A stretch of 41,458 nucleotides of DNA from Reclinomonas americana ATCC 50394. Taxonomy: Eukaryota. The stretch lies in NCBI GenBank assembly GCA_048213135.1, contig PS015011.1, positions 22,308-63,765 on the forward strand, given 5' to 3'. Of the stretch, positions 316-40,000 are shown piece by piece (position 1 is the stretch's first letter; each line of letters opens with the position of its first letter). Made by a program: the position numbers and the translations under genes. The notes beneath the pieces were generated by a model. The model worked only from the letters and a program-made list of their open reading frames with translations. It was not told the origin of the DNA and did no database searches.

Positions 316-2430
316 CTGATGCGCCCCGCTGGTGCTGTGCGCTACTTTGCCGCTGCTCCGAATGTCATTGAGATCCGCATGCCGGGTGTGTGTGTGTGAC
401 GCGCACTGCTCCTTCCTCCCTCCTGTGCGTCACTCTGACTCACTCCTTGCGCAGCGCTCTCGCCCACAATGTCACAGGGCAACATTGTGTCGTGGAAGAA
501 GAAAGTCGGCGGTGCGCAGCGTGTGCTTGCGTTTTCGCGCAGTGTCTGTTGTTGACTGTCTTTGGTGTGCAGATGAGATCAAGCAGGGTGAGATCATTGC
601 CGAGATTGAGGTTTGTTTCTTGTTCTCTTCGTGCTGGCCGCTGTTTGCGAATACCAAAACGATTGCGTGCAGACGGACAAGGCCACGCTGGACTACGAGT
701 CGCCAGAGGATGGGTTTATGGCGCAGCATGTCAAGCCTGCTGGCACACAAGAAGTCCCCGTTGGCGATGTTTTGTCATTCTCTTCGTCATTCCACCGCCA
801 CTCGTTCGTCTCTTGCTCACTGGTGGCCGACCGCCGCAGCTCATTGCGTTGATGGTGGAGAATGCTGCTGATGTGGCTGCGGTGGAGAAGGGTGGTGCAG
901 CGAAGCCTGCCGCCGCTGCCGCTGCCGCTCCGGCTGCTCCGGCTGCTGCTGCTGCTGCCCCGGCTGCCGCTGCTGCTCCGGCTGCCGCCGCCGCTGCTGC
1001 TTCTGCGTCTGGTTTGACGCATATCTTCTTCGCTTAATGTACAGCAGGCTGCGGAAGCACTCACACCCCTCAAAATCGGCAGCAGGTGGTCGCGTGGCAG
1101 CGACTCCCTTGGCCAAGAAGCTGGCCGCCGACTCGGGCATCAGCATCTCGTCGGTGCCTGGAACCGGTCCGTCTGGTCGTGTGGTTGCTGCGGACGTGAG
1201 AGAGTTCAAGCGTTGCGTACTTTATTCTCGTGTGAGATCTTTGCGCTGCGAGTCTCGAGTATTAGTTGACCGACACGTGCGCGCGTGCGCGTGTAGCCTC
1301 TGCTGCTCCTGCCGCCGCCGCTGCCGCTGCCCCTGCTCCTGCTCCTGCTGCTCCGGCTCCTCCGTGCGTCGCCTGCTCTTTTCTTCAGCCCACTCCCCCT
1401 CTCATTCTCTTACATGGCAACTGACGAGCAGGGCCGCCGCCGCTGCTGCTGCCGCTGCTGCGGGTTACACCGACTTGCCTCTGACCAACATGCGCAAGGT
1501 GATTGCCGATCGCCTGGTCCAGTCCAAGCAACAGATTCCGCACTACTACTTGACCGTGAGCTGCAACGTCGACTCTCTGTTGAAGTTTCGTCAATCGCTT
1601 CCTGTCTCTCGCACAATGCGACTCTCTGACGGACAGATTTTCTCATCGTGCTCAGGCTGCGCGCGGAGCTGAACGCTGCCGGTGGTGAGGACTACAAGTT
1701 GTCGGTCAACGACTTTATTGTGAAGGCTGCTGCCTTGGCGTGCCGCAAGGTGCCGGCAGTGAATTCATCGTGGCTCGGCAACGCCATTCGTCAGTACGAC
1801 TACGTGGACGTGAGCGTTGCTGTCAGCACACCCAGTGGACTGATTACGCCCATTCTGAAGGACGCCGATCGCAAGGTAGTTCTTCTCTCGCTGCATCGTT
1901 GTCTCCGTTCTTGTATCCCACTCGGCAACTGTAGGGCCTGGCCACCTTGTCGAACGAGATGAAGGTGCTGGCAGAAAAGGCGCGCAACAACAAGCTGACA
2001 CCACCAGAGTTCCAGGTCTGTTGAATATTTTGCATTGTGCATGATGCCTGTGTCGTCTCATCGTCTATGCCTTTATGCAGGGTGGCACATTCACGATCAG
2101 CAACCTCGGCATGTTTGGCATCAAGCAGTTCACCGCCGTGATCAATCCGCCGCAGTCGTGCATTCTGGCGGTTGGTGGAAGCGAGAAGACAGTGGTGGTG
2201 AACCCGAAGGCCAAGTTGCGTGACACACGGAATGCCGTGTTGGGTGAGTGTTGAATCCCTGTCGGCTCATCGCCCGTGGCCACAGGGATGGTGAGAGCCC
2301 CTACACGACGGCGACGTTGATGAACGTGACGCTCTCTTGCGATCACCGTGTTGTGGATGGTGCTGTCGGCGCACAGTGGCTGCAGCACTTCAAGTCCTAC
2401 GTCGAGGATCCACTCAAGATGCTCTTGTAG
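316..2430 (+). CDS. DLAT: Mitochondrial pyruvate dehydrogenase E2 (dihydrolipoamide acetyltransferase); single lipoyl domain, 11 introns; first exon/start codon unresolved
   Basis: Spliced translation gives the lipoyl domain (MPALSPTM...EIETDKAT), Ala/Pro linkers, a peripheral-subunit-binding domain ([21 protein letters not shown]) and a catalytic domain ([27 protein letters not shown]). TAG at 2428-2430. Donors at 386, 512, 611, 769, 1012, 1212, 1364, 1585, 1876, 2016, 2215. Confidence 0.95.
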
Positions 2431-2530
2431 GCGCCTGGTGCCCACCGCTGTATATGCTGTGGTTTCTGTTGTGGACCGAGAATACAGCGGCAAAGTGTTG
2501 AATTTACATCAGCGCATCGACGCGCTCTAC

Positions 2531-5500
2531 TTAGGAACTGCCACTTCTTACGGCGGCAAGGCTCATCGCCACCGCCTGTTGCTCCAACTCGCTCTCCGAG
2601 TGCACCAACACATCGTCTTCTGCGTCCACTTGTCCGTCGCCGGCCACGCCTGTCACAATCAAACGGTTAAACAGATGCACACACGAAGCACACCGCGCAA
2701 ATGCTGACTGGGCTGGTACCTTGCGCTTCCTCCTGCTCGTTGCGCATGTACACCAAGAACGAGGCCGCTGGTCGGTTGCGTCCAGTCGACTCCTGTCGCA
2801 TGAACCGCTCGGTGGCCTGCATGCAAACGTGAGGAACGAGGGGTTGCTGACAGCATTCTTCATTNNNNNNNNNNNNNNNNNNNNGCACTCAACTCGCTGG
2901 CCATCTGCGCCATCCAGAGTGATCCATGTGTTGTCGCGTGTGTCGAGCGCAAACGTACACTGGCCGACCACCAAGCGCAACGAGTACTCGTCGCCGAGGA
3001 TGGTCGAAAAGACACTGTCCAACTGTGCCATGAGCTCCGCCTTTTCCGCGTCACACTCTGCACACGCGTACAAGTGAGAACAACGCCACTCTCTGCTTGA
3101 GGCAACCAACCGCAAGCCACTACGCAACCTGTAATTCGCTGCCGCACGGTCTCGAGTTCGCAGTCCACCAGCTGGGCAGTCACTTGCAGGTCAGCGTTGC
3201 GTCGGAAGCCGCCACTTCTGCAGTACTCCTTCACTCCCTCCAAGAAGACTTGACGCTGGAACAACCGACTAGATGCGGGAAGGCCACTATGCAAAGTCTG
3301 CAGAGAGCAGCGTGAGCGACACGCTGATGAAACACGACAGTCGTTTCCTTTCAAACCTTGCAAGCCCGCGGCAAGCGCAGTAGTCGCTCTTTGCGATCCT
3401 CGCACGCTTGTATCCTACTGTAGATGGAGACAGCCTCCAGGAAGCATGCCTCCACATCACCCACAGCGTCGGCCGTGTAGCGGCGCATGTGAAGCAGCTG
3501 CTCAAACGCAAACTCGCGGATGGCTTCACCCTTGCCACACTGCCGATCGATCATCAGTCAGTCAGTCAGGCAACTCAGGTCCCCTTCGTGAAACATACAT
3601 CCCGACACTGCGACTCACATGCAACGAGACCACCAGCATCGGCGGCAGTCTCGTGATGGCGCGCGAGCCGATTGGCATCGGCGACGGTGAGCCCGTGTGA
3701 TCCATGGTCAACGGCAACAACTGGCGATCGAGCGCAGCCTGCACGCAAGCACAGTTCTTCACGTCGACGCCCAACTGTGCAAGAGTCTGTGCCACGCAAT
3801 CCAGCAACTGTCAGAGTCAGCGCGTGACAACGGCCAGCACGGCCTGTTCGCTCACTCACCGTGGACTCGCCGGTGTCGAGTTGTGTTGACCGAATGTTGA
3901 GAGCACTGGGGAAAACAGACAAACATCTGTGAGCAATCGAACCAAGCAGACACGAACAAGCACCCGGCGCGTACTCTTCCACTGCCGCCGCCACCGGCAC
4001 GCTGCTGCATTGTTGCAGAGTGTGCAACACAACCTCGTACAAACGCTCCCACACAAGCGCCACGTCTGTCAGGCAAGTGCAGAACGTGAGAGACCACATG
4101 GAGAACTGCAAGGCGAGTCACAAAGAGACAACACACCAGATTGCCGCTCTGCTGCGATCCGGCTCACGGTGATGAAGCTGTCCAACAGCGCCTCGCTTGT
4201 AAGCTCCACGACCTCACCGGTGCACATCAGATTGGCAAACAGATTCTGCACGAGAAGCACAACTGCAACACCCCCAGCTCAGCACAGCGACAGTGTTCAC
4301 CGCACACCACAACAACGCACACTCAATGCGCTGGAAATCGCGAAGCACAGCGTTGCTGTCGGCACGCTCGTCGACAGCCTTCACGGGGTCTGCAGATGCC
4401 ACAAAGACGCAGTGAGTAATGCACGCAGCAGTCAGTGCATGGACACACCGCAGTTGCCGCACCACGAATGTGCAGCGGGGTCGATGTCACCGGACGTGCC
4501 GGCACAAAAGCAAAAATGGCACGTCGCATCGGCAGAATCCAGAATGCCATCAACAAGCACGCATTCAGTGCCGCGTGTCCTCTCTTGGTCGGTTGCGACA
4601 CGAGATGATGCAGAGTGGAGGGATAGTATTGCTGGGTGGCGTCGGAGTCCAGAGAGAAATTCTCCAGTACGCTCGCTGGGCAACAGATGCAACTAGTAAG
4701 TTAGGCAGTTGATACCAAAGTACTCGGTTTTTCTCACACCATCCACACAGCGCATCAGCTCCTCGGATCCACGGGCCTCCGCAATGANNNNNNNNNNNNN
4801 NNNNNNNNNNNNNNNNCCGACAGACAGATCAACAGGCGTTCAGCCTGATCCGGGAAGAGCGACAGTCTGTTTTGCCCCCAAGAACGTAATAGATGTAAGT
4901 CAACTGCATCCAAGGTCAACAACAACACGAAAATGTCTCTGCACTTCATACCGATTACGTGTCGCCAGCAGCACCGCAGTGTCGCTGCTGGACGACAGCG
5001 CACCGAGGATAGTGAAAGCAGTTTCCACTTCCGGCACATCGTCCACCTCTGCAATTCACATGCATGCGTTCAGCACCGTGACATGGGCAGCAGATGGACA
5101 CGACACGACAGCAAACCTTCCACCACAGCGGCGACATCTGCACTCAAACCCAGCATGCGTCTGAGGTGCGAGACGAGCCGTTCGGGGCGCGTCGGCGATT
5201 TGACCGAGGTGACAGCAAGCTGGAAGCGGAGCGGTGGTGCGCGTCCGTTGATAACATCTGCGGTAGATCAGTAAAGGAAGTATCACCTCGCCACAAAGAA
5301 ACCACACACACCTTGCTGGCGATGCAAGCCACACATTTCGCCAAGCACCGAGTCTGTTTTTGGTCCACCGTCGACAGCAGACTCGGCTGTATCCACTGCA
5401 TGGATACGATTGCGCAGCAGCTCTTCCGCGAAAGCGTGCAAATCGGACGAATCTGTGCCCAAGCACGCCGACAGTCACACAGACGGCGGGAGACGCCACC

Positions 5501-6863
5501 GCATGCGAGGTTCATGGTATACTTACAATACTCCTGGAACTTGAGGTGGCACGCGGTGGTGATTGCGAAAAACTCGTCAATAACACGACGAACAAGTCCG
5601 TCGGGGCGACCAACGGCTTCGGGCTTCCCGTCAGAGGTGTCTTTCGGGAGGTTGTAGCCGTACCCGCCTCCGGGTTGATCCACACGTCGGAAGCCAGCAA
5701 TCTGCAACGATATGCGCGGACGGAGTCAGAATCGTGCTGCGCGCTCCAGCTGAAGGCAGACGGGGGAACCTCCAGAGTTCGGGGAAAATACGGAAGCGAT
5801 CGCAAGAGCGGCGACGACGAGGGGATCCAGCGAGCGCTGCATTCAGGTTTCAGCATGCAGCAGCGGCAGCAGCATGAATGCAACGGTACGTAACGAATCG
5901 TCTTCGGGGTCATCGAGAATCTTGTTGAACACTTGGTGCACCGCTTGCGACAGGCGGATCAGCGTCTGCACAGCCAAAAAGTAGTGTTCAGTGCGCAAGC
6001 GGCGGGGGAAGAGTCGACACCGAGTCGCGACTCACATCGTAGTTGCCATCCTCACTCAGCGCACGGAACACACGTGCCAGCAGCGCATCCCTCAACTGCA
6101 CATGCAGCTCCACCAGCGAATGCTGGCATCGGAACAGGCGTCGGTTCGCGGTGCCGTAGTGCTCCAGCCGTCGCCACGCAAAGCCCTACAAAGAGCAACC
6201 CGTGAGCAGTCCCTACCACCCTCACGCTTACCCACACCACGCACCGTATTCGCCGGCAACTCCACCGTCACATCTCGCGGAACTCGCAACTGCAGCACAG
6301 AGTGATGACTTGCGGCACACAGTCACAGAGAGAGAGAGAGAGAGAGAGACGCACAAACCTCCACAGTCATCTGGGTGAGTTGCATTACACTGACAAACGC
6401 GTGCAGAGTCACTGCGTACTCTCGATTGTAGGGCACGGACGACTCGGGCAAATAGTCGACCATGATCGTCTGATGATGATGATGATGAAGATGAAGAAGT
6501 TGTCAGATGTCCACACACACACGCACACACAATGCCACCCACTCACCTGTGTGGATGAGTAACCCTCGAGAGGGCTCACACGAAGGAACGACACACTCGG
6601 GTCTGTGGAGAAGGCCGTGGACTGCATGCAAATGTGTGAGATGAGTGGCGTGTGTGCGTGAGAAGAGAGAGACGAGTGTAGAGAGGGAGGTTGGAGACCA
6701 GGTGATCAAAGAGACGCTCCGGCGAGTAGTTGAGCATGGAGGCTGCGCGGAATGCAGGTTTTACATAAGCAAGACCTGCCAAGAGTGCCGAGTGTGACAC
6801 GTGAAGAGACTCACGATCCATGCGGAGGAGGCCCGCAAGCAGATCCATTCTTGAGAGATCCAT
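2531..6863 (-). CDS. Large multi-exon hypothetical protein with a degenerate PUB-like domain
   Basis: ATG at 6863 (MDLSRMDLL...). A chain of GT-AG-bounded exons runs down to the stop at 2531. Exons at ~5965-5640 translate to QVFNKILDDPEDDSARWIPSSSPLLRSLPYFPRTLEIAGFRR...YNLP, resembling the PUB consensus. Middle exons not fully resolved; two small N-gaps inside. Confidence 0.6.
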
Positions 6864-7022
6864 AACTGCTGCTGCTGCTGCTCACTTACTCGTCAAGGTT
6901 TGTGTGTGTAGTGTTTTATAAATTCGTGGTGACTCAAACAAATTTTCGACGACGCCTGCTTCCTCCCTCTCTCCCTCTCTGTTGCACTCGCGCGCGCCCG
7001 CACGCAGTCTCGCTGCCACTCA

Positions 7023-7081
7023 TCAACGACGGCGACGATGACGGTCGGGCGATCGGGATCCCGAGGCGGAGCGCGAACGGG
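7023..7081 (-). CDS. Orphan terminal exon fragment RSRSASGSRSPDRHRRRR*, probably the SNW1 3' end displaced by a contig inversion
   Basis: Arg/Ser-rich open frame abutting the gap and ending in TGA at 7025-7023. No other parent gene is visible, and SNW1 lacks its C-terminus. Confidence 0.5.
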
Positions 7082-7644
7082 NNNNNNNNNNNNNNNNNNN
7101 NNNNNNNNNNNNNNNNNNNNNNNNNNNNNNNNNNNNNNNNNNNNNNNNNNNNNNNNNNNNNNNNNNNNNNNNNNNNNNNNNNNNNNNNNNNNNNNNNNNN
7201 NNNNNNNNNNNNNNNNNNNNNNNNNNNNNNNNNNNNNNNNNNNNNNNNNNNNNNNNNNNNNNNNNNNNNNNNNNNNNNNNNNNNNNNNNNNNNNNNNNNN
7301 NNNNNNNNNNNNNNNNNNNNNNNNNNNNNNNNNNNNNNNNNNNNNNNNNNNNNNNNNNNNNNNNNNNNNNNNNNNNNNNNNNNNNNNNNNNNNNNNNNNN
7401 NNNNNNNNNNNNNNNNNNNNNNNNNNNNNNNNNNNNNNNNNNNNNNNNNNNNNNNNNNNNNNNNNNNNNNNNNNNNNNNNNNNNNNNNNNNNNNNNNNNN
7501 NNNNNNNNNNNNNNNNNNNNNNNNNNNNNNNNNNGACCCCTATCTCTCTTTCACACCTCAGCTCTCTTTCTCCCATCCCTCCCTCCCCATCCTTCTCCCT
7601 CCCGTCCCTCCCCCTCACTCCTTCTCTCGTGCATCCCCGAGCAG

Positions 7645-9363
7645 AAGACCGCGGGCAAGGTGGTGGCGCTCAAGACGGACTCGGATGGACGCCTGCAGTT
7701 TGATGCCATTGTGAAGCAGGGGCAGCGCAAGGACAAGAAGATCTTTTCGACGCGCGCCGATCTGGATGAGAAGGAGGTGAGTGTCGTGGTGTGCACACAG
7801 AGAGAGAGAGAGGGAGAAAGTGAAGAAGAAAGTGTGTCTCTGTGTGTGGTGAGTGAGGGAGATGTATATTGATAGAAAGAGCCAGAGAGAAGCAAAGAAC
7901 TTCTGCACACCCAATGTGAGAGACAAGACTGCCATGTGAGGGAGCCGCACTCACACTCTTGCCCTCTTCTCTCCGCAGTTCGGTGAGGATGAACTGGCTC
8001 GACCGGATACGGAGGCGGAGAAGGAGATTGCGGAGAGGACACGCAAGGCGCTGGAGGAGAAGATGAATGCGCGGGCCAAGGCCGCACGGCCGCAGGTGGG
8101 CACGCAGCAGGAGGAGCCGCAGTACATTCGGTACACGCCAGCCACGCAGAATGCGGCGCACAACTCGGGCGCCCAGCAGCGCATCATTCGTATGAGTTTC
8201 GTGATTCGCATTGCTTGGTCGCTGAGAGTTTCGGGAACGGGTTCACTCGTGTGAGCTCACCTGTCGCTCCGTCACCCTTCAGTGACGGCGCCCACGGATC
8301 CACTGGAGCCGCCAAAGTTCAAGCACGTCAAGGTCCCGCGAGGTGACTGACTATTCTTTTATTTTTTGTGTCACACATAGTGGTGATGATGATACACTCA
8401 ACATTTATCTTCGCGTGCAGGGGCTGGGTCGCCGCCGGTGCCGGTGATGCACTCGCCACCGCGCAAGCCGACGGCGCAGGAGGTGCAGGATTGGACCATT
8501 CCACCGTGCGTCTCCAACTGGAAGAATCCTCGCGGCTACACGATTTCTCTCGACAAGCGTCTGGCGGCCGATGGACGTGGCACACAGGAGGTCACCATCA
8601 GCAACAAGTTCGCCAAGCTGTCATCGGCCCTGTATGTGGCCGACCAGACGGCACGCGAGGAGCTTGAGCAGCGCAACAAGATCATTATCAAGATGAAGGA
8701 GAAGGAACGGACAAAACAGGAGGAGGAGCTGCGCGAGAAGGCGCGCCTGGCACGTCAGGAGCGCTCCGGTGTGGCGGGCATGAACGAATCGCTGAAGAGC
8801 CAGTTGCGTTGCTGTACTCTCCCCTCTCCCCCCTCTCTCCCTCTCCCCTCTTCTTCTCACACTGTTGCACCAGTCCGGAGGCGGATGAAGATCTGCGTGA
8901 GCGTGAGGAGCTGCGTGAGATGCGTCGCAAGCAGCGCGAGCGTGAGCATCGCAAAGAATCGCTGCGCGCTTCGGGTGGACTGAAGAAGCGTGAGGAGGAG
9001 CGTGATATCAGTGAGCGAGTGGCCCTCGGTCAGGGACCTTCCGCGCCCTCCAAGGAGCTCATGTACGATCAGCGTCTGTTTAATGCGAGTCAGGGTCTGA
9101 CATCGGGATTCGCCGCCGACGATTGTTGCGTCTTTTGTTTACGCGCACCCACACGTCGCTTCCGGCAGCTCACTGTATGAACAGCGTATGCCGTGTACGA
9201 CAAGCCGCTCTTCAGTGGCAGCAGTGCCAATCAATTGTACAGGCCCAAGGCAGTGGACACGGAGGTGTACGGTGGCGGTGATCAGCTGATGGATTCGCTC
9301 ACCAAGACTGAGCGCTTCCGACCCGACAAGGGCTTCTCGGGCACCGAGGGTGGCAAGACGGAG
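7645..9363 (+). CDS. SNW1: SNW domain-containing protein 1 (SKIP/Prp45), internal exons; both ends fall in gaps
   Basis: YIRYTP, QRIIRMM..DPLEPPKFKH, VMHSPPRK, IPPCVSNWKNPRGYTISLDKRLAADGRG, RDISERVALG, YDQRLFN, YDKPLF, RFRPDKGFSG. Confidence 0.95.
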
Positions 9364-9566
9364 GTGCGTTGCCGGGATTTGCAAGTCTCTATCTCACTCC
9401 TCCTTACTTTCATCTCGCTGCCCCACCATCGCGGTTTTTCACTCGTGCTTGTGTGACCTTTGTTTGCTCCCGTCCTTTCTCTCTCCCTCTCCCTCTNNNN
9501 NNNNNNNNNNNNNNNNTCTTGTGTGCGTGTGTGTGGCTCATATGTGTGTGTTATGTGTTTATTCAG

Positions 9567-27370: not shown

Positions 27371-29695
27371 TCAGTCGTGTCCCGCGATCTTCACGACTCG
27401 TGCCTGTAGCCGTTGGCTGCCTGTACGTGCCTTGTTCATGGTCTTCTCCAGCTCGGACTCGCCGTCCCTCGAGGCGTTCGGACTGCGGGGCGGTCAGCAG
27501 GATCAACAATAGCGACGACGACGACCACCACACCCACGCACCGATGGCGAATCTTTGGTCGCTCCTCGTCGTTGGCGTCGTACGTGCGCAAGTTGCTCGG
27601 CAGATCGAGCACCAGTCGCGTCCACTTTTCCTTGATCCGCTCCGCCGTACGCTTGTTGGCCTCCGTCTCGCGCGGGTGACGCGAGTACAGATTCACCAGC
27701 ACGCCGATGCGCGAGTCCTTCAAAAAGTCGTCGCGAATGCCCATGGAATCGCCCTGATCACCCGGCCGTTGTTCAGTGTCGTCGCCCTCGCACGGCAAGT
27801 CAAGCAGGATGCGCAGAATGCAGGTGCGCAGGCTGAGCGGCGGCAGCGACTTGTCCTTGGCGTTCGGCTTTAGCCAGTCGAACAGCGCCGACAGTAGTGC
27901 GTTCTGCAGCAGCGGTCCGACGAAACGCGGACTGTGGACGAGAGTGAGTGAATTGACACGTGAAGGAAAAAAGCACACATGCAGAGAGAGGTGAGCATGC
28001 ACTCAACTTGCGGACGTACTGCTCCAACTTTGACAGCAGTCGCTCCTTGTGAATCGCTGGCTTGCCCTCTGCATTCAGGCGCTCGTCGGTCTGCTGCGCC
28101 ACTTGCATTTCCTTGATGAAACGAGAGGCCTATGGCAGGGGTGAGACATCAATGATTGCGCATCTCACATCGCACTCGCACATACCGCCTGCACGTAGGA
28201 CTCGCGTTTGGGGGCCAGATCGGTGACTCGCCGCTTGATGTACGCCGTCACCTCGTCCTCCTCCTTCTTCTCTGTGGGCACACATACTCGCGTGAGGCCA
28301 CGTGCCTGCGGTGTGAGAGAGGCACACGCGTGCACTCTGACGCACTCTGCGACTTCTCCACCGGCTGCTCCGCAATCGCACTGTCAATGTTGATGCGCTT
28401 TCGCCGCCGGCCGACACCCTTCTCTTGTTCGTCGTCGCCACTCTCCTCCTCGCCAATCTCATCGTCGTCCTCGTCCTCGTCGCCAGACTTCTTTCGCCGG
28501 CGCCGCTTGCCTTGCGTCTCTCGCTCCTCGTCCATTTCGGCATCCATCGCAGTCTGCTCGGCCTCCATCGCCACACGCTGCACAGCGACACTGTGAGTCT
28601 TCCTCACACACGCACACACGCGCACAGCAGCAACAGCCATTGCACCTCCTGCACGAATCGCTCGACGGCCTTCTTGAACAGCGACTTGTACTCGTGCTTG
28701 ATCTTGTGCTTGAGGTGCTTCAAGTGGCTAATCACCATGTCGCGCACCGTCGACCGATTCACCGTCGTCAAATCCTCCAGCTCATACACCACCTCGCGAG
28801 TGACCTCTTCGATCTGTCGCTTGTCGAGCTCCTCGTCGTTCTCCTCCTCCTGCAGAGCCGCCGGCCGTTCCGCCTTGCCCTGCTTCTTCAGCTTCTTCAA
28901 CTTTTTCAGCTTCGACGACAGACTCTCGTCGTCGCCATCTCCCTCGCCCTCCTCGTCCTCTCCATCGCCATCACCACTCTGGCACACCGTTCAGCAAGGA
29001 CGACACACATACAGAGAGAGAGAGAGAGAGAGAGAGAGCATGCAACTCACCTTTTGTCGTTTCCTAGGTGGCTCATCATCGTCGTCGCCAAACAACTCGT
29101 CATCGTCGTCGCCCTCGCCCTCGTCGCTCTTCTTTGCGCCCTTGCTCAACTTGCGCCTCTTTTCCTGTGTCTTTTCACCTTCTCCACTGCCACTGTCATC
29201 GTCATCGCTGTCGGCAGCAGCCTTGGATCGCTTTCTCAGCTGCACTCACACATACACATCGTGAGCAGTGTGGTGTGTGTGTGTGTGCGTGTGCGTGTGC
29301 GTGTCTTGCTCACCAGTCGCTTCTTCTTCTCCTTGGGTGCATCGTCGTCCTCTTCTTCATCCTCCTCCTCCTCGTCTTCTCCACTGGCCACTTTGAAATC
29401 GCCATCGGCCTCCTCATCTTCATCGTCGTGCTCGCCTGCAAGCATGCACACACACATGTACGCACATGTGAGAACAAAGGACAGCGTACACTGCTATGTG
29501 TCTGTGTGCGTGTGANNNNNNNNNNNNNNNNNNNNNNNNNNNNNNNNNNNNNNNGAGAGAGGGAAACGCACCAAACAGGTCGTTGTACGCGTTCGACTCT
29601 GCAAACGATCACACACACACATGAGCGCGTTGAGTGATCTCACACACTCTTGCACACACACATGCACACACACACACACCGCCACCGCTTTCCAT
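27371..29695 (-). CDS. IWS1: Transcription elongation factor IWS1/Spn1 with acidic N-terminus and an extra DEK-C-like helical domain
   Basis: EMQVAQQTDERLNAEGKPAIHKERLL, LSALFDWLKP..KSLPPLSLRTCILRILLDLP, LKDSRIGVLVNLYSRHPRETEANKRTAERIKEKWTR (TFIIS-N/IWS1 domain). ATG 29695, TGA 27373-27371. Small gap inside an intron. Confidence 0.9.
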
Positions 29696-29927: not shown

Positions 29928-32900
29928 CTACGTTGGCGAGTAGCGCATGCTGTGCGAACGAGGTGATCGGCCTGGCGACAAGCTGGCCAGCGAGTGCGGC
30001 GGCAGTGGCTTGCCGGCGACCGCGTCGTCGTGGATGCGCTTCTGACGCTGCCACTCCCTCTGCTTGTTCCACGCATCCGACAACAAAAAGGTGGTCTCCA
30101 TCTTGCGTCGCATCTGCGCGTCGCGCTCGGCCAGCATACTGTGCAACAGTTATCGAATATGAGCATGCACGTNNNNNNNNNNNNNNNNNNNNNNNNNNNN
30201 NNNNNNNNNNNNNNNNNNNNNNNNNNNNNNNNNNNNNNNNNNNNNNNNNNNNNNNNNNNNNNNNNNNNNNNNNNNNNNNNNNNNNNNNNNNNNNNNNNNN
30301 NNNNNNNNNNNNNNNNNNNNNNNNNNNNNNNNNNNNNNNNNNNNNNNNNNNNNNNNNNNNNNNNNNNNNNNNNNNNNNNNNNNNNNNNNNNNNNNNNNNN
30401 NNNNNNNNNNNNNNNNNNNNNNNNNNNNNNNNNNNNNNNNNNNNNNNNNNNNNNNNNNNNNNNNNNNNNNNNNNNNNNNNNNNNNNNNNNNNNNNNNNNN
30501 NNNNNNNNNNNNNNNNNNNNNNNNNNNNNNNNNNNNNNNNNNNNNNNNNNNNNNNNNNNNNNNNNNNNNNNNNNNNNNNNNNNNNNNNNNNNNNNNNNNN
30601 NNNNNNNNNNNNNNNNNNNNNNNNNNNNNNNNNNNNNNNNNNNNNNNNNNNNNNNNNNNNNNNNNNNNNNNNNNNNNNNNNNNNNNNNNNNNNNNNNNNN
30701 NNNNNNNNNNNNNNNNNNNNNNNNNNNNNNNNNNNNNNNNNNNNNNNNNNNNNNNNNNNNNNNNNNNNNNNNNNNNNNNNNNNNNNNNNNNNNNNNNNNN
30801 NNNNNNNNNNNNNNGGACGGGAGACAGCCAACACCACACCACGGGACGCAACTCGGCGTTGGCCTGCTGGATCTCCTGCAAGTCGGCGAGCACCTCGGCC
30901 TCGCGTTCAGCATACAGACGGTTCTTCTTGTCTTGGATCTGCTGTTGTAGCTGCTTGCGATGGTAGGCGCGGTGCGAGTGGGCGTCGTCCGGAGCAGGCG
31001 GCTCCACTGGGAACGCGGTGATATCGCGGTCCAAATCGATGGCGTGCGGTGCCCGTTGCACTTGCACCGACGCCAATCGCTGTCCCTCCCGCTCGCGCAT
31101 CTGCGCCTGCAGGAAGCGTCGGTGGTCGTCCTGGACTTTGCGACGCGACTCGCGATTCGCAGCATCCACACGACGGGTGATTTCCAGCTGCGATTGCTCC
31201 TGTTGACGCACGTGCACAAGTTAGCAAGGGTCGTCACTGCCGAGCCGGCGACATGTAGAGTGACTTGCCTGTTTCATGTAGTAGTCGTCTTCCTGGAACT
31301 CCTTCGCCAGCGTGTCCTCGTACCGCTTGAACGCCTCCTCCATGGCAGCATCTGTGGGACGTCAAAAAGAAGAAGTAGACGTCAGACGGGTGGCCACGAA
31401 ACACAGGAGAACACAAGACGAGACGCAACGCATCGCGGTGCTGCTGACACCTCGGCCAATGCTGTTCTTCATGGCCATGGACGGCAAGTTGGCCGCCAGA
31501 GTGTACGACGCACCGCCGACGGAGCCAGACGACGAGCGATTCGAGTGCGGAGAGGCCAGGCCGGGCCGACCGGGGGCGGTGACTGCGCGAGGAATGTCCA
31601 GTGATCCGACACGCGTCGCACCGTGCGGCGGCGTCATCGGGGCCAACTGCGGACTCGATTGCCGCACAGCCGAGGCGCCATTCTGCGCATCAACACACGC
31701 ACCGAAAAATAGTGAGCAACGACAACTTTGTGTCACAAACACAAAACGAGCAACGCGCACTCTTCTGTCCACCCAGTCCTTGCCGTGCTTGGCCAGCAGG
31801 TCTCTCTCCAGCTGCTCAAACTCGCTGTCGAGCTGCCGTCGTCTTCTCTCCTGTGCTTCGGCCTTGCTCAATGCCACCGGACTGTACTCTTGCACCTGTG
31901 GCCACACGAAATGAGCGACACGATCACGAGGCTGCGCGTAACCACCGCGCAAACACACACCTGGTGCATCAACTCGCCACGCGAGGTCTCCGTGAGATCG
32001 CGAGCGCGACGATCCAGCTCCTCCTCGTCCGTGTATGGCCAGTGGTCGTGCTTCTCGTGTCGCTTCTCGGCGTCGCGGCGAGCGGCAGCCTCGCGCTTCT
32101 GGTGCACCACATGCTGATTGTAGCTCAAGTCCTGCTGCGACACATTGGCGGCCTCCAGTCGCTTCCGCCTTTCGTAGTCGAGGGCGGCCAACACACTGCG
32201 CTGCGTCGACTCGTGCTCCGCTCTCTTGTCGCCATCGTCGCGGTGGCCGGGGCGGGCATCCTCGCGCGCGACCAGCGACTGCGACAGCAGCGACGAGCGC
32301 TTCGTCGGACTGCCGGGAGTGCCGAGTCGCGGCGGACCACCACGCGTTCTCGGTCGTGGCGACGTTTCACCGCCGTTGCTTGCTGCTGCTGCTGCTGCTG
32401 ATGGGGCAGATGCAGACGCACCGTTTCCATTCGACGCCCCAGCCGCCTTGGGAGACTCGATCGTGGCGTGATCGCCGTGCACGGTGAGCACATTGAGTGC
32501 GCCGGAACCGTTGCCTCCCTCATTGAGTTGCACGTGCTGGCGGCGACCGTGCGCAGGCGAGGCACGTGGAGGCGACACTCTCGACGGCGACACGTTGCCG
32601 CCACCACCGCCACCGGCCAGTCGACCGCTGCGTGAGGGTGGCGGTTGCATGATTTGACCATTGCCGGCGCCTGGCGGCAACGACAGGGTGGCGATCGGAG
32701 TCATGGTGGAGGCGCCGGTGCTTCCGCTGGCGCCCCCCGAAGCCACCTGCGGTGTCGTCAGGGCGTCCCGGTTGAACTCGTCGGTGTATGTGGTGCTCGG
32801 TACGAACTCCACAATCGCGTGCTCGCCCTTGATGGAGCCCATGCCACCGAGATCGATATTGATCTTCTTCCCGGACGACAGCACCTGCACAAAAACACGA

Positions 32901-33417
32901 ACACACGGTTGTGTGAGCGGCGTTGGGGAGGGCAGAGACGAGTGCGGACCACTGACCTCGCCCAATCGCTGCACAAACTGTCGCAACGCGGCCACAATCG
33001 TGTCCTTCTTGATCTGACTCTGCTGCGAAATCGCAAACGTGTTCACCTCGGCCATCGGCATCTCATTCGTCACGTGTGGCCTGTTGTGCAACCGCAGCGC
33101 GTGCGCCTGCGCAAACGCTTCGCTGATCACAAACAGCGGATTGCGCTTCGTGGTCTCGCCGGCCACGTTGCGAACGCGCTGCACGACAAACTTGCCCATG
33201 CCCGGCAAGATCACGCCCTGTGTCGCGCGATGAGCACATCGCGCCCTCCCCGCTCATCATCACCAAATCACACGCCCCGCACCTTTTGCAGCGCCAGTTG
33301 CCGCTTGACAAACGCAAAGGTGGCCTCGAAGACACTGCGATATGTGTTCTCGTCGATCTTCATGAGACGCGACCGAGCCGCACACTCGCGCATGAGATCG
33401 TCCATGGAGTACGCCAT
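29928..33417 (-). CDS. CCDC81: CCDC81-like protein (two N-terminal HU-CCDC81 domains plus coiled coils); one gap inside
   Basis: FAFVKRQLALQKGVILPGMGKFVV..RNPLFVISEAFAQAHAL..EVNTFAIS..LSSGKKINIDLGGMGSI matches CCDC81 HU-fold domains as I recall them. Coiled-coil C-terminus ending in TAG at 29928. Confidence 0.8.
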
Positions 33418-33877: not shown

Positions 33878-35422
33878 TCACGGATCGGCATCGAGACGTG
33901 CCACCATGTCTGTCTGCGCGACGCGCTGGTATGGGTGAGCCAGCGTCATGGCCACGTTGTGATACACCTGTATACATTGGACTGGTTAGCAACTGTCACG
34001 ATTGCTGTATGCAAGCGGCCTCGTGCACACACACCTGGTGGTTGAGGCGACTGTGGTAGGCGAAAGCGGTGCCCGCGTTGCGGATTCGTGTCAGTGTCTG
34101 CACGAGAACGGTGAAGACTTGCTGCTTCAGAGCCTTTTTCTGCCGCGTGCAAAATACGGAGAATATTAGCGGATGATTGGAGCAGCAAGTCTACACACAC
34201 ACACACGCATAAAAAGAAGAAGCTCGCCTCTTCCCATCCCGGTTCCTCTGGATCTGTGCGCTCGCTGTGCCATCAACACGTGGTGTGAGTGACCGTCCTT
34301 CCTACGATATGCCAAACTCCTGCTTTGCGCGCACCACAAGAACACAGTATCCATGTAGAAGTTCTCGTCGTTGACCACCCGTTCGACTGCACGCATGGCC
34401 GACGGCGTCTCGCTAAACGTGGGCACGACATTGGAGCGGCCGTAGATGACCACAGCGCGCAGAATGAACTTGCCAATCTCTTCACCGCGCGGCAAGTACG
34501 GCTCACTGCCACGAAAGACAAGTCAGCGGGCGTGGCGAAGATGTGGCGACTCCCAGCGCTGCACTGCCCGATCGCACCATGACTCAAACACACTCGACAT
34601 GTCGAAGGATGTGTAGACGGAGCCGGGTCGGAAGTCGCCCAGCTTGCGCACCGCTGTGAACTCGCTGTATGTGAATGGTTGCACCTGGAAGAGGAGTGCA
34701 TGAATAGGGGGGAGGGCTGAGGTGAGAGAGGGCGCAAGGTGTAGGCCACCACGCACCAGTGTCGCCCGCTCACGCATGGTGGCCAGCGCGTACTCGTGCT
34801 TGTTCGAGAGTCGGGCCTTGGCGTGAATGAACGACTTGATGGCGTTCTTGACCACATCCAAGCGCGTCTCGTAACGACCGCGCATGTGCATCCTATGTTA
34901 AACACACACACACGCGTGAGTGAACAAGGCGAGTGCGTGCACAACAGCCGGGGGACAAGACACAACTCTTCGCCAGTGTAATCAAAATTCCTGCGCGCAC
35001 ACACACACAAGGAGACAACAATCAGCGCGCGCGCGTCGGAGAAAACACACACCCTAGCAGACAACAGCAACGCACATCATCTCGTCACCGAGATCAATGA
35101 AGAACATCTGTCGAGTGTGTGAGCTCGCAAGTCATCACCGCCATGTGCACTCTCTCTCTCACACAGACGCAACAATCTTCTCTGGGCAGCTCTTGGGCAA
35201 CTCCAGCCGCTCGGGCATTGGCGGCGGCACTGGTGCCACTGATGCAGCAGCAGCAGCTGACTCTTCCTCAGCAGGTAATGCAGCAGCAGAGGGTGCTTCC
35301 TCATGTGGCTCCGCGTGAGGAGGCTCGCTGTGTGTGGCTGCGTCGGCGGCCGGCGACGCCGCTGAGAAGCTCGTGTAGGCGTCTTCGGCCGCGCGGCGTG
35401 GAGAGGTTCGCGGGGAACTCAT
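33878..35422 (-). CDS. BABAM1: BRISC and BRCA1-A complex member 1 (MERIT40), vWA-like
   Basis: CPEKIMFFIDLGDEM, TRLDVVKNAIKSFIHAKARLSNKHEYAL, SFDMSSVF, ILRAVVIYGRS, NFYMDTVFL, YHNVAMTLAHPYQR. ATG 35422, TGA 33880-33878. Confidence 0.88.
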
Positions 35423-35544: not shown

Positions 35545-36919
35545 TTACGCCTCTGTGTCTTGCGAAAAGTAGTCGTCGTCGAAGTGGTGCACGCGGATCA
35601 CACCTTCCTCGCCACCGCTGACAAACCTGCATCAACAAGGAACAAACACAAAATGAGTAATCATCATCATCACGACTTCATCCTTCCATCCACAACGCAC
35701 CCTCTGCCGTCTGGTGCAAACTGCAGCGTGTTGACGGGTCCAAAGTGACCGGCCACGGCGCCCAGCTCCATGCCGTAGTACTTGTGGAAGAACTTGGTCT
35801 CGAACTTGCCGGCACGACCCGCTGTTGTTGTCACATCGCGAGCTTGCTGACCACCACCCAGAATCACGTGGTCGCGGATCGGACTGCGCACACGTCACAA
35901 GCTAAGCACACACGAGCAGCGCAACGCACCACCAACGCGCCACATCCAAACCTAATGTCCACATCGTTGACAATCGTGTCGCTCTCGTAGGCTTTCGCGC
36001 ACTCGCCGCTCCGCATGTCCCACATCTTCGCCGAGTGATCCGCAGACGCCGACAACACGCAGTGGCCGTTGTAGGCTGTCCTGATGTGGTTCACCGTGCC
36101 GTCGTGTGCGTCGATCTTGAGAATTAGCCTGCCCGTCTCCGTATCCCACTGTCGCACCGTCTTGTCTTCCGAGCACGAAATCACCGTGGCGTTCAGCGGA
36201 CCCCACTTGCAGTCGGTGATGCGCTTGTCGTGGCCGAGAATCTTCATCTTTGGTTGCGTCGTCTGTTCCCGCGGATCAAACGACTTGCTGGTCATCAGGT
36301 CCTCAGCCACATCGTACAGATTGATGGCCGGCTGGTAGCCGAAAGTGGAATCGGTGCACGACAAGAACTGTCGCTCACCCAGTGCCAGCGACACCGCACG
36401 GACCTGGCGACTCGTGTGTGAGACAATGCGCTGGCGGAAAGCAGTCAAGAACAACGCAACGGCAGTCGGATGCTCAATGGACCACAGCAGAGTGCCGGAT
36501 TGCACATCCCAAATGCGCACATTCTCGTCACCACCGGCGCTAATCAGGCGGGTCGAGTCGCGCGAGACGTCCACTTGCCACACCACACCATTGTGGCCCT
36601 GCGCAGAGTGTGAGCAAGAGAGAAAGAGAGAGGAAGAGAGGAGAAGCTCAGAAAAGAGACCTTGAAAATGCCCATTCGCTCGCCATTATCCGTGCGCCAC
36701 ATGGTGATCATCTTGTCCTTGGAGGCGGTGAACAGCAGATCGCCGTCGTGGTTGTAGCGCACGCACTGTGCAGTGCAGCTTCAGTGAGACATGTCGGCAC
36801 ATGCACACACACACACACGCGCACACACGCACACACGCACACACAACGAGCGCGTGTCTGCCAAGCAGTGCACTCACCGTGATAGGGCGCTCATGGCCCG
36901 TCAACATAATCGGTCGCAT
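35545..36919 (-). CDS. EIF3I: Eukaryotic translation initiation factor 3 subunit I (WD40)
   Basis: MRPIMLTGHERPIT|CVRYNHDGDLLFTASKD..NGERMG, HVILGGGQQARDVTTTAGRAGKFET, GHFGPVNTL, SGGEEGVIRVHHFDDDYF. Five introns; TAA 35547-35545. Confidence 0.97.
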
Positions 36920-37083
36920 GGTTGCGTGTGATGTGTGTGCGTGATTGGAGGTTACTGCGAGGTAGAATGGAATTCCACCTATGTCAGTAACCCCCTTTAG
37001 GGGTGGGACAGAATACAACAGCGAGCACTGTCCATTTACTTCGTGTTTGTGTGTGCGCGTGCGTGTGTGTTGGCCTTGCGCTC
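36920..37083. promoter_or_regulatory. Bidirectional promoter EIF3I/SRPRA with a CCAAT-like box and dyad elements
   Basis: 164 bp between divergent ATGs. ATTGG at 36944-36948, palindrome TGGAATTCCA at 36968-36977, ACCCC-N5-GGGGT at 36990-37004. Confidence 0.6.
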
Positions 37084-40000
37084 ATGCTTGATCAGTTTGT
37101 GATTTGCACACGTGGCGGCCTGGTGCTGTTCCACTGGGAACCTCGTGGCGCGCTTCCTGTGCCCGGTCGTCCCATCAACACGCTCATGTCCGCACTTCTC
37201 GAGGCATGTTCCTCCGCCCTGCCTTGCTCTCTCTCCGTTGCTCTCTGTCGCACCGCGCTCTCTCTCTCTTTCTGTTTGAATGTCTCTCAGTTGGATTGAC
37301 CACCAAAGTCTCAAATTGGTTGTTTCTCTCCTCCTGTGCGCGCGCGCGCGTCACACAGGGTCGCAGTGGCAGTGTGGAGACGGAGACACACGCGGTGAAG
37401 CATTTGGTGGTCAACGAGCACAGCATCATTCTTGCAGTTGCGTTGTTGAATGCGATCACACAATGCGCGCCGAATCACTTACGCCGAATCCCTCAGGCGG
37501 TGTTTAGCAAGAAGCGACCGCTGCCGTACATAGACCTGCTGTTGCGACAGGAGCGCGATGCGTTTGTGAAGGAGTTTGGCGCGGCTGCGTTGCGGCAGCC
37601 GGCGCTGCATCGGTTTGAGGAGTTTGTCGGGCGCTTTGACGCGGTGCTGGCCGACGTTGAAACCGATCACTTTTCGCGACGTGGTGCTGGGCGCAAGATG
37701 GTGACCTCGGCCGGCAGCGACGGCGACGATGATGAAGCGGAGAATAGCGATGGAGAGGTGTCGTCGCATGCGGTGCGAGGCAAGAACGGCACCATGACCA
37801 CCACCACCACCACCACCACGACGGTCACGGCGTCGGAGGAGGACGAGTCGTCGGGACCGCACACCCCGCAGGCGGATCGCTTCTTGCGCGTGGGCAACGA
37901 TCTCGGCCGCTCCTCGTCCGATCCCATGAGCTTGTCGCCCGACGGTTCCCCGTCGGCCGCCAGCGATGGTTCCGGTGTGCAGAGTGACCAGGGATCGCCG
38001 TCGTCGGCGGGCGACGCTGCTCGCAGGGCACTAGGCAAGCTGCTGCCCAGAGGAGTTGGTGAGTTCTCTTTGTTGTTGCTGTCGTGTGTAGATTGTCGCT
38101 GATTGGCTCGTGGTCAGGCGCCAAGGCTCCTCGTCGCACTGGTTTGGTGGCCAAGGCGGTCAAGAAGCCAGCCGAGTTGCGTGCTTGTGATTGTGTGCAT
38201 GAGTGTTTGTGCATGTGCTCACGATGGTGTTGTTGTTGTTGCTGCTGCCGTGATCGACAGGCCACCAAAACCAAAGGGCAAGCAGAAGACGAACTGGGAC
38301 GATCTGATGCCCGACGACGGAACACGCGCTGTGACCGAGGATCGCATTCGCGCTCACGACCGATCGGCGGTGCTGACAGAGGAGGAGAGGCGAGAGGCCG
38401 AGGAACGCGAGGTGACGGAGACACGTCGTCGCTTCCTGAGGAGCCCCAGCAGTGGTAACGATGGTGGTGGTGCCAGTGGATCGGGGTCCGGCAGCTCCGC
38501 CCCTGCCGACAATCCGCGCACCAGTGGAGGCTTGCTGTCGTACTTTAGTCGGCTGGTGGGTGGTGCACCGCTGACGGAGGAAACCCTGGCGCCGGCCCTG
38601 GAAAAGGTCAAGGACAAGCTGATGACGAAGAATGTGGCCGCCGGTATCGCCGACGAGCTGTGTGCCGGAATTCAGCAAGAGTTGCTCGGCAAGAGCCTCG
38701 GCACTTTTAATAGTTGCGTGGGGGAAGGAGGAAATAGGAGAGGGGAGGGAGAAGAGAAGAAAGATGAGGAGGAAGAGTGTCACAAGTACTGATCAAGGGC
38801 GCACTCTGCAGCTGTGGCGTCGTCCGTGTCCAAGGCACTGGAGGATTCACTGCGGCGTATTCTGACACCGAAGCAAAATATCGACGTGTTGCGCGAGGTG
38901 ACGCGTGCGCGGGAGGAGGAAAATCGACCGTACACGATTGTGTTTGTGGGTGTGAATGGTGTGGGCAAGAGCACGTCGTTGGCCAAGGTGTGTGTGAGAG
39001 AGAGAGAGAAAGGGAAGGGAAGGGAGAATGAGTGCGCAGCTCACGGTCGATTATTTCCAGGTGTGCTACTGGCTGCTTCAGCAACGCAAGCAAGTGATGA
39101 TCACGGCGTGCGACACATTCCGTTCGGGCGCCGTAGAGCAGCTGCGTACTCATGCGCGTGCCTTGGACGTGGAGCTGTTTGAACGTGGCTACGGCAAGGA
39201 TCCGGCCGCCATTGCGCAGGAGGGCATTCGATATGGTGCGTGAGACAGGGGAAGGAAGGAGAGATGGGGAGGGGGGAAGGAGGGAGGATGTCAAGGAATA
39301 GAGAGGAAAGGAAGGAGATAAGAAGAACGTGACAGAGGCAGAGAGGGGAAGGAAGGAGAGAAAGAGAGGGAAGAAAGTGAGGAGAGAGAGAGAGAGAGAG
39401 GAAGGAAGGAAGGAGAGAGTACGGAGGAAGTAAAGAAAGGAGTGAGAACTTGAGGGAAGAGTGAGCGAGCGGCGCAGTGAGAAAAGAATGAAAGAGACTG
39501 AGGCAGAGGTGAGAAGGGAGAGAATGAGACGGAAGAAAGTGAGGAGAGAGAATGGGGAAAGGAGAGAGAGGAAAAGGGAAGCGTGAGAGGGTCAGAGAGA
39601 GAGAGAGAGCAGGAGAGAGAAAAGAATGAGAAGACTGCAGAGTTGGGTGTGTGTGTGTGCGTGTATTCTAACAGCCTCCCTCTCCTACTTGCACAGGCAA
39701 GGACAACGGCAAGGATGTGGTCCTGATCGACACAGCCGGGCGCATGCAAGACAACATGCCGCTGATGGAGGCACTGGCCAAATTGATCCACTTCAATTCT
39801 CCCGACTTGATTCTCTTTGTCGGCGAGGCACTGGTCGGCAACGACGCCGTGGATCAGCTGACGAAATTCAACCAGGCTCTGCAGGACCTGACCCCGGCCG
39901 GTCGCCCATCGCGTCTCATCGATGGTATTGTGCTCACCAAATATGACACTGTCGACGACAAGGTTCGATATGTGCAGTATCTTCCTCGCTCGCTCGTTCG

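Follow-up and report, generated by a model that had tools for sequence, protein, structure and literature searches.

In a 41,458-nucleotide stretch of the Reclinomonas americana ATCC 50394 assembly (GCA_048213135.1, contig PS015011.1, positions 22,308 to 63,765; the window, below), the last base of an exon predicts the form of the 5′ splice site, or donor, that follows it. Donors were classed by their intron letters alone: N5 donors carry G at +5; S6 ("shifted") donors carry T at +3, a base other than G at +5 and G at +6, as in GTTGCGT; class O holds the rest. Among 87 curated donors, the 57 that follow an exon-final G (−1G) comprise 49 N5, 2 S6 and 6 O, whereas the 30 that follow A, C or T comprise 22 S6, 6 N5 and 2 O (Fisher p = 5.5e-12). 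A preliminary description of the same DNA had claimed that the −1 base predicts the donor class, and this contingency test bears the claim out. Within the window, the observation is confirmed far beyond chance.

The donors were drawn from 12 rebuilt genes, 42 of them from seven conserved genes (DLAT, SNW1, SR-alpha, eIF3i, BABAM1, CCDC81 and IWS1) and 45 from five others. In the conserved genes, S6 donors make up 0/25 of those after G and 14/17 of those after A, C or T (p = 1.3e-8); in the other five genes the counts are 2/32 and 8/13 (p = 2e-4). The rule is visible in every gene that has at least one non-G exon end, and the association is present in each of the intron phases 0, 1 and 2 (p = 3.3e-6, 3.6e-4 and 0.026). 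A gene model made without any splice-signal scoring, which is noisy, still gave S6 donors in 0/23 versus 9/35 cases (58 donors, p = 0.008). In a worst-case annotation of 94 donors, all manual choices were reverted, the four stop-free introns with a length divisible by three (3n introns) were dropped, and 11 ambiguous introns were resolved against the rule; S6 donors then followed G in 3/47 and A, C or T in 19/47 cases (p = 1.6e-4). The S6 share of non-G exon ends hence lies between 19/47 (worst case) and 22/30 (curated), and the statement that most non-G exon ends are followed by S6 donors is safe for the conserved genes only.

At the level of single positions, +3T, +5G, +6G, +7T and +5C are all linked to the −1 base (p < 1e-6), as is +6T (p = 3e-5), and the associations or anti-correlations of −1G with +5G, +6G and +5C all reach p < 1e-8. 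For +4C, no association with the −1 base was found among the 87 donors. The heptamer GTTGCGT occurs 27 times on the two strands together, against 10.5 ± 3.3 times in shuffled sequence, and 0/100 shuffles reach 27. Seventeen of these occurrences are donors in our table, one of which has a G before it; among the other ten, three do.

Anatomy of shifted and ordinary donors

The S6 donors (24/87) are strongly stereotyped, with GTTGCGT in 17/24, C at +5 in 21/24 and T at +7 in 23/24. N5 donors are more variable, their commonest forms at +3 to +6 being GCGT (13), GAGT (12) and GTGT (7 of 55). However, the N5 donors that follow a non-G base are tight as well: 5/6 read GTGCGT, compared to 8/49 of those after G (p = 0.002). 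Since N5 donors lacking −1G are as tight as S6 donors, donors without −1G must carry a GCGT core. The best donor in this organism is G/GTGCGT (the slash marks the exon-intron border), and the optimal core is GCGT.

With respect to exceptions, the preliminary description had named ordinary GTGCGT donors after a non-G base, and we find them at 1364 (+), 28345 (−, IWS1) and 35075 (−, BABAM1). Another that it placed in CCDC81 (31760, −) does follow a non-G base, but is only one of three in-frame options and was excluded. Its counter-example of the opposite kind, G/GTTGCGT at 3128 (−), is confirmed, with no alternative donor in frame. The second, weaker S6 donor after G, at 17549 (−), reads G/GTTTTGC.

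Apart from their donors, S6 introns resemble the others. Median lengths are 71 (S6) and 70 nt (p = 0.81), branch scores do not differ (p = 0.59), and the G+C content is alike. Both classes have CTCAC as their most frequent branch motif (11/24 S6 and 20/55 N5, 31/79 together), the median distance from branch to acceptor is 21.5 versus 22 nt (S6 versus N5), and the acceptors are CAG in 20/24 S6 and 48/55 N5 introns, and CAG or TAG in 23/24 and 54/55. A blastn-short comparison among the 24 S6 introns, with the first 8 bases removed, returned no pair at E < 0.01. Because S6 introns match the others in length, branch, spacing and acceptor and lack similarity to each other, they are ordinary U2-type introns rather than minor-class introns or mobile copies. 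U12-type introns are marked by a long, conserved donor resembling RTATCCTT and by a branch site like TCCTTAAC. Such minor introns were considered and rejected, since S6 donors have the form GTT-N-CGT and S6 introns use the same branch motifs as the others; introner elements (intron-generating repeats) were rejected because similarity among the S6 introns ends with the donor. After CTCAC, the branch-like motifs next in frequency are CTCAT, CTGAC, CTGAT and TTGAC. Examples of branch-like motifs lie at 425-445, 8860-8873 and 36780-36800.

The position of the cut was read from protein junctions: alignments to homologues at the S6 donors 8196, 9125, 1585 and 2215 place it before GT. A cut one base later (TT..) was rejected, as the junction residue S at 9125 matches the homologues, and a cut at the second GT of GTTGCGT was rejected as well, as it would insert residues that the homologues do not have.

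A proposed recognition helix displaced by one base

We favour, with moderate confidence and as the best available reading, an explanation of the extra-T donors after non-G exon ends by a displaced helix, for which there is experimental precedent in human. A single recognition heptad, G-(G/T)-T-N-N-G-T, would be common to ordinary and extra-T donors, with the cut in front of the one GT that it contains. The first G of this heptad would be the last exon base in ordinary donors and the first intron base in extra-T donors, such that the helix with small nuclear RNA (snRNA), with U1 first and probably with U6 later, would lie one base deeper in the intron relative to the cut, while the cut would stay at the only GT. 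Where coding reasons keep an exon from ending in G, the place in the helix that otherwise belongs to −1G would thereby still be filled by a G. Inferred parts of this reading are the identity of the pairing snRNA, the state of the extra U (mismatched in a shift, or bulged) and the way in which the cut is fixed; that U5/U6 would reset the cut site is drawn from general knowledge of the spliceosome.

The exon side offers a means to judge the displacement. Under a register shift of one base, the composition of S6 donors at −1 is expected to equal that of ordinary donors at −2, and the two agree closely (A10 C7 G2 T5 of 24 versus A21 C16 G4 T8 of 49; chi-square p = 0.97), with G at 2/24 S6 −1 and 4/49 N5 −2 positions. 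At −2, S6 donors depart from the composition of ordinary donors at −2 (p = 0.03), whereas against ordinary −3 the difference is not significant (p = 0.12). Pairs were counted with the canonical U1 5′ end as given in PMC4856993, which may differ from the organism's own U1. For S6 donors after a non-G base, the mean count rises from 4.0 in the canonical register to 6.5 in the shifted one, whereas N5 donors lose approximately 3 pairs when shifted. The preliminary description had proposed that G+1 takes the place of −1G in the U1 duplex and had named U1 pairing in both registers as a check. The exon-side composition, the pair counts and the tight core speak for its proposal; the tie with a bulged register and the weakness of the duplexes, described below, do not.

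It had also suggested that the rule frees coding sequence from splice constraints. In support of this, the share of non-G exon ends rises from 8/40 (20%) in phase 0 to 12/32 (38%) in phase 1 and 10/15 (67%) in phase 2 (p = 0.0047). As the freedom of the last exon base to change shrinks from phase 0 to phase 2, this rise fits the idea of a coding constraint.

Several observations weigh against the displaced helix. Two S6 donors do follow G (3128 and 17549), and the data set holds no more than 87 donors, all from a single window of 41 kb, of which 45 were placed by reading frames and signals alone; in the worst-case annotation, only 19/47 non-G donors are S6. Neither are S6 donors simply N5 donors displaced by one base, as C is found at +5 in 21/24 S6 donors, while position +4 of N5 donors holds A in 20, C in 17 and T in 18 of 55. 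A register with one U bulged likewise gives 6.5 pairs for S6 donors after non-G. In free-energy calculations, S6 donors pair weakly with canonical U1 whatever the register (mean −1.3 versus −8.0 kcal/mol; S6 after non-G, −1.3), and their duplexes of minimum free energy scatter over many registers. The near-invariant +5 C would face a pseudouridine, which canonical U1 does not explain. Finally, after a non-G base GTTGCGT is favoured about 4 to 1 over GTGCGT; since a plain H/GTGCGT would give six contiguous pairs and is expected to be the better pairing of the two, helix stability alone cannot explain this preference.

The GCGU core and the invariant C together lead to the prediction of a U1 in which G and C replace the two pseudouridines. 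With such a hypothetical U1 (G and C at positions 5 and 6), the duplexes of S6 donors after non-G would strengthen from −1.3 to −6.5 kcal/mol, a prediction rather than a finding. Its duplexes place G+1 on nucleotide 9 and G+6 on nucleotide 4, which is the shifted register, in 12/24 S6 donors, and G+1 on nucleotide 8 and G+6 on nucleotide 4 in 3/24. A routine displacement of helix and cut by one base in about a quarter of introns, coupled to a U1 5′ end unlike ACUUACCU, which is nearly universal, is a tentative and rather doubtful extension of this reading. Another stage at which the dependence between −1 and the intron side may act is that of U5/U6, in line with proposals on the −1G/+5G compensation (PMC8283771) and on two donor classes (PMC11732430).

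Weighing other explanations

The extra T might be accommodated by a bulge instead of a shift. G+1 and U+2 would then pair with C8 and A7 of U1, one U would bulge, GCGU would pair one step later, and the exon end would lie outside the helix. Pair counts do not separate shift from bulge, being equal with canonical U1 (6.5 versus 6.5) and with the hypothetical U1 (7.4 versus 7.4), and a bulge at +2/+3 is an experimentally known register in human, with 68 predicted sites, 54 after curation (PMC4856993; this and the other papers cited by PMC number are cited from excerpts of their text). However, a bulge leaves −1 opposite C9 of U1, which gives no reason to avoid G at −1 (2/24) nor for S6 −1 to have the composition of N5 −2, and the minimum-energy duplexes with the hypothetical U1 place G+1 more often on nucleotide 9 (12/24) than on nucleotide 8 (3/24); we regard the bulge as unlikely. 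A further alternative is that two snRNA species are at work, a second or non-canonical U1 fully complementary to GUUGCGU reading the extra-T donors and another the ordinary ones. This would suit the far greater stereotypy of S6 compared to N5 donors (GTTGCGT in 17/24, +5 C in 21/24), the poor account that canonical U1 gives of S6, and the departure of the optimum GTGCGT from the usual GTAAGT; for the GTGCGTG donors of Ostreococcus, Irimia and Roy raised a change of snRNA as a possibility (PMC2483917). Yet the two classes are alike in branch motif, spacing, acceptor, length and composition, a tight core is equally expected from compensation (N5 donors after non-G being as tight, 5/6 GTGCGT), and no snRNA gene lies in the window that could back a second U1, which makes this explanation quite improbable in our view.

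The reading could instead lie with U5 and U6, G-ending exons leaning on U5 loop 1 and those ending in A, C or T needing a strong intron-side contact, with the extra T as a lineage-specific spacing. A canonical U6 ACAGA box would not favour C at +5, which counts against this. In its favour, many species show an anti-correlation between the AG//GUNNN and NN//GURAG classes (PMC11732430), the −1G/+5G compensation has been attributed to U5 and U6 rather than to U1 (PMC8283771), and U1 energies leave the preference for GTTGCGT over GTGCGT unexplained; but the published U6-type class comes without an extra base, and we hold this explanation to be very doubtful. An artefact of hand annotation or of small sample size is suggested by the facts that several donors were picked by judgement and that a two-class donor score was used in some gene models. 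That score is blind to the exon side, however, and the rule persists without splice-signal scoring (p = 0.008) and in the worst case (1.6e-4). Nine junctions are confirmed by homologue alignments, GTTGCGT is 2.6-fold enriched over shuffles, and a preceding G is seen in 3/10 GTTGCGT outside the donor table versus 1/17 within it. The artefact is thus highly improbable and has largely been refuted already.

Comparison with known splice sites

At atypical human 5′ splice sites, a U1 register shifted by one base (+1) was reportedly described by Roca and Krainer in 2009. Experiments have established that rare human sites use shifted and +2/+3-bulged U1 registers (PMC4856993). The window donors resemble these in having an extra base after GU, the rest of the consensus one step later and a non-G exon end, and in being cut at GU though the helix is displaced, which is here read from sequence. 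They differ in their core, GCGU as compared to AAGU in the human shifted or bulged sites, and in scale: against 68 predicted +2/+3-bulge sites in human (PMC4856993), the form makes up 24/87 donors here, and 22/30 of those after non-G.

That −1G and the intron side compensate for each other has long been known (Burge and Karlin 1997 and Carmel 2004, cited in PMC8283771). As in the two main 5′ splice-site classes (AG//GUNNN versus NN//GURAG; PMC8283771, PMC11732430), the exon-end G trades off with intron-side strength in the window, and where −1G is lacking the intron side is at its tightest. Unlike in those classes, there is an inserted U here, and the conserved G is at +6 rather than +5 (22/30 after non-G); in the excerpts of the two papers, what sets the published classes apart is the choice of matching positions and not the register (PMC8283771, PMC11732430).

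GTGCGT donors together with CTGAC-type branch sites form the consensus of the Mamiellophyceae, a group of green algae (PMC3879977, PMC2483917). The window shares with them the optimum donor AG/GTGCGT(G) and a branch motif of the CTGAC kind; however, Mamiellophyceae are intron-poor, whereas the window genes are intron-rich and have CTCAC as their commonest branch motif. No extra-T class is mentioned in the excerpts of these papers (PMC3879977, PMC2483917). A literature search of open-access PMC and bioRxiv texts, supplements lying outside it, yielded no paper that treats GTTGCGT-type donors as a class, which is not proof of absence.

Compensation and displaced registers are thus already known, while the scale and the rule-like use appear to be new. 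If the rule held genome-wide, the flexibility of the U1 register that is rare in human would become a main mode of splice-site recognition, and the form of the donor would be tied to coding constraint, given the rise of non-G exon ends with phase. It would also yield a prediction on the 5′ end of this organism's U1, and gene finders with a single donor matrix would misplace or miss about a quarter of the organism's donors. Our own gene models repeatedly misplaced extra-T donors and read through stop-free 3n introns. Should both the displaced mode and an altered U1 be true, the organism would be a natural system for how the spliceosome sets the cut independently of U1.

Gene models and intron calling

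The window has a G+C content of 39-61% (in 2-kb windows), lowest where its eight N gaps sit, and holds at least 12 protein genes on both strands, which are cut up by many short introns. Its genes are intron-rich, with short GT-AG introns of a median of about 70 nt. All results rest on this one window of 41 kb, and junctions were called from reading frames, splice signals and protein homology. A GT start and an AG end were imposed by the search, which covered these ends and not GC-AG or others, and accordingly 87/87 curated introns are GT..AG. A self-trained gene finder was run without signals, with signals, with mixed coding models and forced to a single gene. All runs were partly wrong: they called spurious short introns, read through 3n introns and placed a spurious first intron at 36921. 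Introns were therefore curated by hand with lists of in-frame alternatives. For every predicted intron, all in-frame GT..AG alternatives were listed; the choice among them was then guided by the reading frame, the signals at branch and acceptor, protein conservation and, in the large repeat gene, the pattern of its repeats. The donor table excludes 13 ambiguous introns, a further one near 4448 and some introns at the start or end of genes that could not be fixed. Regions 25964-27420, 29555-31260, 40100-41458 and 9517-10500 yielded no usable gene model.

Junctions were checked with alignment tools for 3/5 SNW1 and 6/11 DLAT donors. The SNW1 junctions at 8196, 8343 and 9125 align without gaps to seven homologues. 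In DLAT, comparison of exon translations to six full-length homologues supports the donors 512, 611, 1585, 1876, 2016 and 2215, while carrying the translations on to the rival donors at 521, 1879 and 2239 gave unaligned or surplus residues. Several junction choices in eIF3i, SR-alpha, BABAM1, CCDC81 and IWS1 follow presumed family conservation. In the SR-alpha intron 37437..37496, this presumed family conservation is the basis beyond the SRP-alpha_N match, and for the eIF3i intron 36404..36460 (−) homology was likewise presumed. The gene names IWS1, CCDC81, BABAM1 and eIF3i are putative and come from reading the translations, in part in the preliminary description, rather than from a database match.

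The SNW domain of the SNW1 gene was confirmed by a protein atlas and by an exon search, in which the best matches among those listed had 60-68% identity and were mostly from land plants. A metagenome scan with the SNW1 exon gave 80 loci of 50-71% identity, with at most one GTTGCGT per locus; identities this low mean that no close relative is among them. The one locus examined (L003) holds an SNW1 without introns. Protein searches with an exon of the repeat gene and an exon of eIF3i returned neither a protein from this genome nor a close relative, and PDB searches with read-through translations of eIF3i and SR-alpha gave WD-repeat matches or nothing useful. An Rfam profile scan of the window found 0 families at the gathering score, and no snRNA gene in the window.

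Genes and further features of the window

Table 1. Genes of the window, shifted (S6) donors and donors after a non-G exon end. Names of the IWS1, CCDC81, BABAM1 and eIF3i genes are putative; O, class O.
Feature	Positions	Strand	Donor class	Last exon base	Donor	Remarks
DLAT (pyruvate dehydrogenase E2) gene	316..2430	+				donors after G: 386, 512, 611, 1012, 1876 (O), 2016
DLAT intron	769..839	+	S6	T	GTTTTGTC	frame and signals
DLAT intron	1212..1296	+	S6	C	GTTGCGTA	
DLAT intron	1364..1431	+	ordinary	C	GTGCGTCG	no in-frame alternative
DLAT intron	1585..1655	+	S6	A	GTTTCGTC	homologue alignment: flanking exons abut, one split codon
DLAT intron	2215..2285	+	S6	A	GTTGCGTG	rival donor 2239 gives 8 residues more than any homologue
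Hypothetical gene, two internal gaps	2531..7081	-				donors after G: 6358, 6244, 5311, 4136, 3859, 3356
Hypothetical gene intron	3058..3128	-	S6	G	GTTGCGTA	counter-example; no in-frame alternative; top signal score
Hypothetical gene intron	4263..4320	-	ordinary	T	GTGCGTTG	no in-frame alternative
Hypothetical gene intron	5453..5531	-	O	A	GTATTGTA	+6 G and +7 T, but +3 A
Hypothetical gene intron	5837..5894	-	S6	C	GTTACGTA	no in-frame alternative
SNW1/SKIP gene	7535..9456	+				5′ end in gap; donors after G: 7777, 8343 (O)
SNW1 intron	8196..8282	+	S6	A	GTTTCGTG	gap-free junction versus 7 homologues
SNW1 intron	8803..8873	+	S6	A	GTTGCGTT	within variable alignment region
SNW1 intron	9125..9184	+	S6	T	GTTGCGTC	gap-free junction; junction residue S as in homologues
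Large repeat gene (GGGA..F..N repeats)	10456..19884	-				five ambiguous introns excluded; donors after G: 18199, 18004, 17430, 17213, 16779, 16647, 16495, 15943, 15770, 15573 (O), 13322, 10980
Repeat gene intron	11797..11866	-	S6	T	GTTGCGTC	acceptor uncertain
Repeat gene intron	13487..13564	-	S6	A	GTTGCGTT	
Repeat gene intron	16190..16271	-	ordinary	C	GTGAGTAG	
Repeat gene intron	16999..17063	-	S6	A	GTTGCGTC	repeat pattern
Repeat gene intron	17486..17549	-	S6	G	GTTTTGCT	second, weaker counter-example; +7 is C; exon ends fit repeat pattern
Small membrane-protein gene	20210..21615	+				donors after G: 20430, 20775, 20939, 21158 (O), 21256
Small membrane-protein gene intron	20680..20761	+	S6	C	GTTGCGTG	no in-frame alternative
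Small membrane-protein gene intron	21462..21528	+	S6	T	GTTGCGTG	acceptor 21528 or 21570
IQ-motif-like gene	21829..23874	-				donors after G: 23706, 23584, 22749, 22299
IQ-motif-like gene intron	22975..23032	-	O	A	GTTGACAG	
IQ-motif-like gene intron	23182..23247	-	ordinary	A	GTGCGTCC	
IQ-motif-like gene intron	23376..23447	-	S6	C	GTTTCGTG	no in-frame alternative
Gene between two gaps	24192..25466	+				donors after G: 24655, 25058 (O), 25266
Intron of gene 24192-25466	24877..24925	+	S6	C	GTTGCGTG	acceptor 24925 or 24952
IWS1 gene	27371..29515	-				donors after G: 29313, 29050, 28185, 27541
IWS1 intron	27932..28007	-	S6	A	GTTGAGTG	
IWS1 intron	28272..28345	-	ordinary	A	GTGCGTCA	
CCDC81-like gene	31221..33417	-				donors after G: 33282, 32956, 31960
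CCDC81 intron	31352..31429	-	S6	C	GTTGCGTC	
BABAM1-like gene	34166..35422	-				donors after G: 34756, 34577; last intron left out of table
BABAM1 intron	34893..35075	-	ordinary	T	GTGCGTTG	
BABAM1 intron	35108..35173	-	S6	T	GTTGCGTC	
eIF3i-like WD-repeat gene	35545..36919	-				donors after G: 36877, 36660 (O), 35951, 35700
eIF3i intron	36404..36460	-	S6	C	GTTGCGTT	57 nt, 3n, no stop
SRP receptor alpha gene (SR-alpha)	37084..40159	+				donors after G: 38059, 38988, 39236, 39963
SR-alpha intron	37437..37496	+	S6	A	GTTGCGTT	60 nt, 3n, no stop; Pfam SRP-alpha_N match begins at first residue downstream
SR-alpha intron	38176..38260	+	S6	A	GTTGCGTG	
SR-alpha intron	38713..38811	+	S6	A	GTTGCGTG	no in-frame alternative

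Some introns left out of the table have more than one possible donor. In CCDC81, three donors (31760, 31754 and 31742), each after a non-G base, are in frame for the intron that ends at 31683, and in IWS1 the intron ending at 28578 may begin at 28645 (G/GTGCAA) or at 28615 (T/GTGCGT). The hypothetical gene has four ambiguous introns, and a fifth, with a donor near 4448, was excluded. For the first intron of SR-alpha, the donor options are 37188, 37208 and 37237, every one of them after a non-G base; the gene has weak profile matches to SRX (from residue 1) and SRP-alpha_N, and the SRX profile fits better if exon 1 runs beyond 37188. Two C/GTTGCT candidates, with T at +6, are among the ambiguous alternatives, at 37237 (+) and 31754 (−). 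SNW1 probably has a further intron outside the table, with G/GTGCGT at 9364 (+), spanning the gap 9497-9516.

Near gaps or in unmodelled genes, GTTGCGT follows A or T at 26986 (+) and at 30852, 41098, 9601 and 19555 (−), and GTTGAGT at 2893 (−) follows A or T in a stretch likewise without a gene model. All six are likely to be additional S6 donors. The eIF3i gene (start at 36919, −) and SR-alpha (start at 37084, +) lie head to head, with their start codons 165 nt apart. Between them, G/GTTGCGT at 36921 (+) might be a donor in the 5′ untranslated region or a chance occurrence; it was ruled out as a coding donor, as SR-alpha begins at the ATG at 37084.

The four stop-free 3n introns are 36404-36460 (−), 37437-37496 (+), 16588-16647 (−) and 22222-22299 (−), which models based on open reading frames translate as 19-26 additional residues. 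The large repeat gene (10456-19884, −) has more than 20 GGGA[LV]...F..N repeats and a hydrophobic C-terminal part. Its relatives carry PF02415 and PF13229 (Chlamydia-PMP and beta-helix domains), and its best named eukaryote matches are from Mesostigma, Phytophthora, Aphanomyces and Cymbomonas. Its codon usage is unlike that of the other window genes, and it was missed by the first coding model. The acceptor at 16419 (−), placed by the repeat pattern, is AAG rather than CAG or TAG. Window positions 1-150 consist of (ACGT)n followed by (CT)n microsatellites, and GT- or GTGC-rich microsatellites within many introns give rise to runs of in-frame alternative donors.

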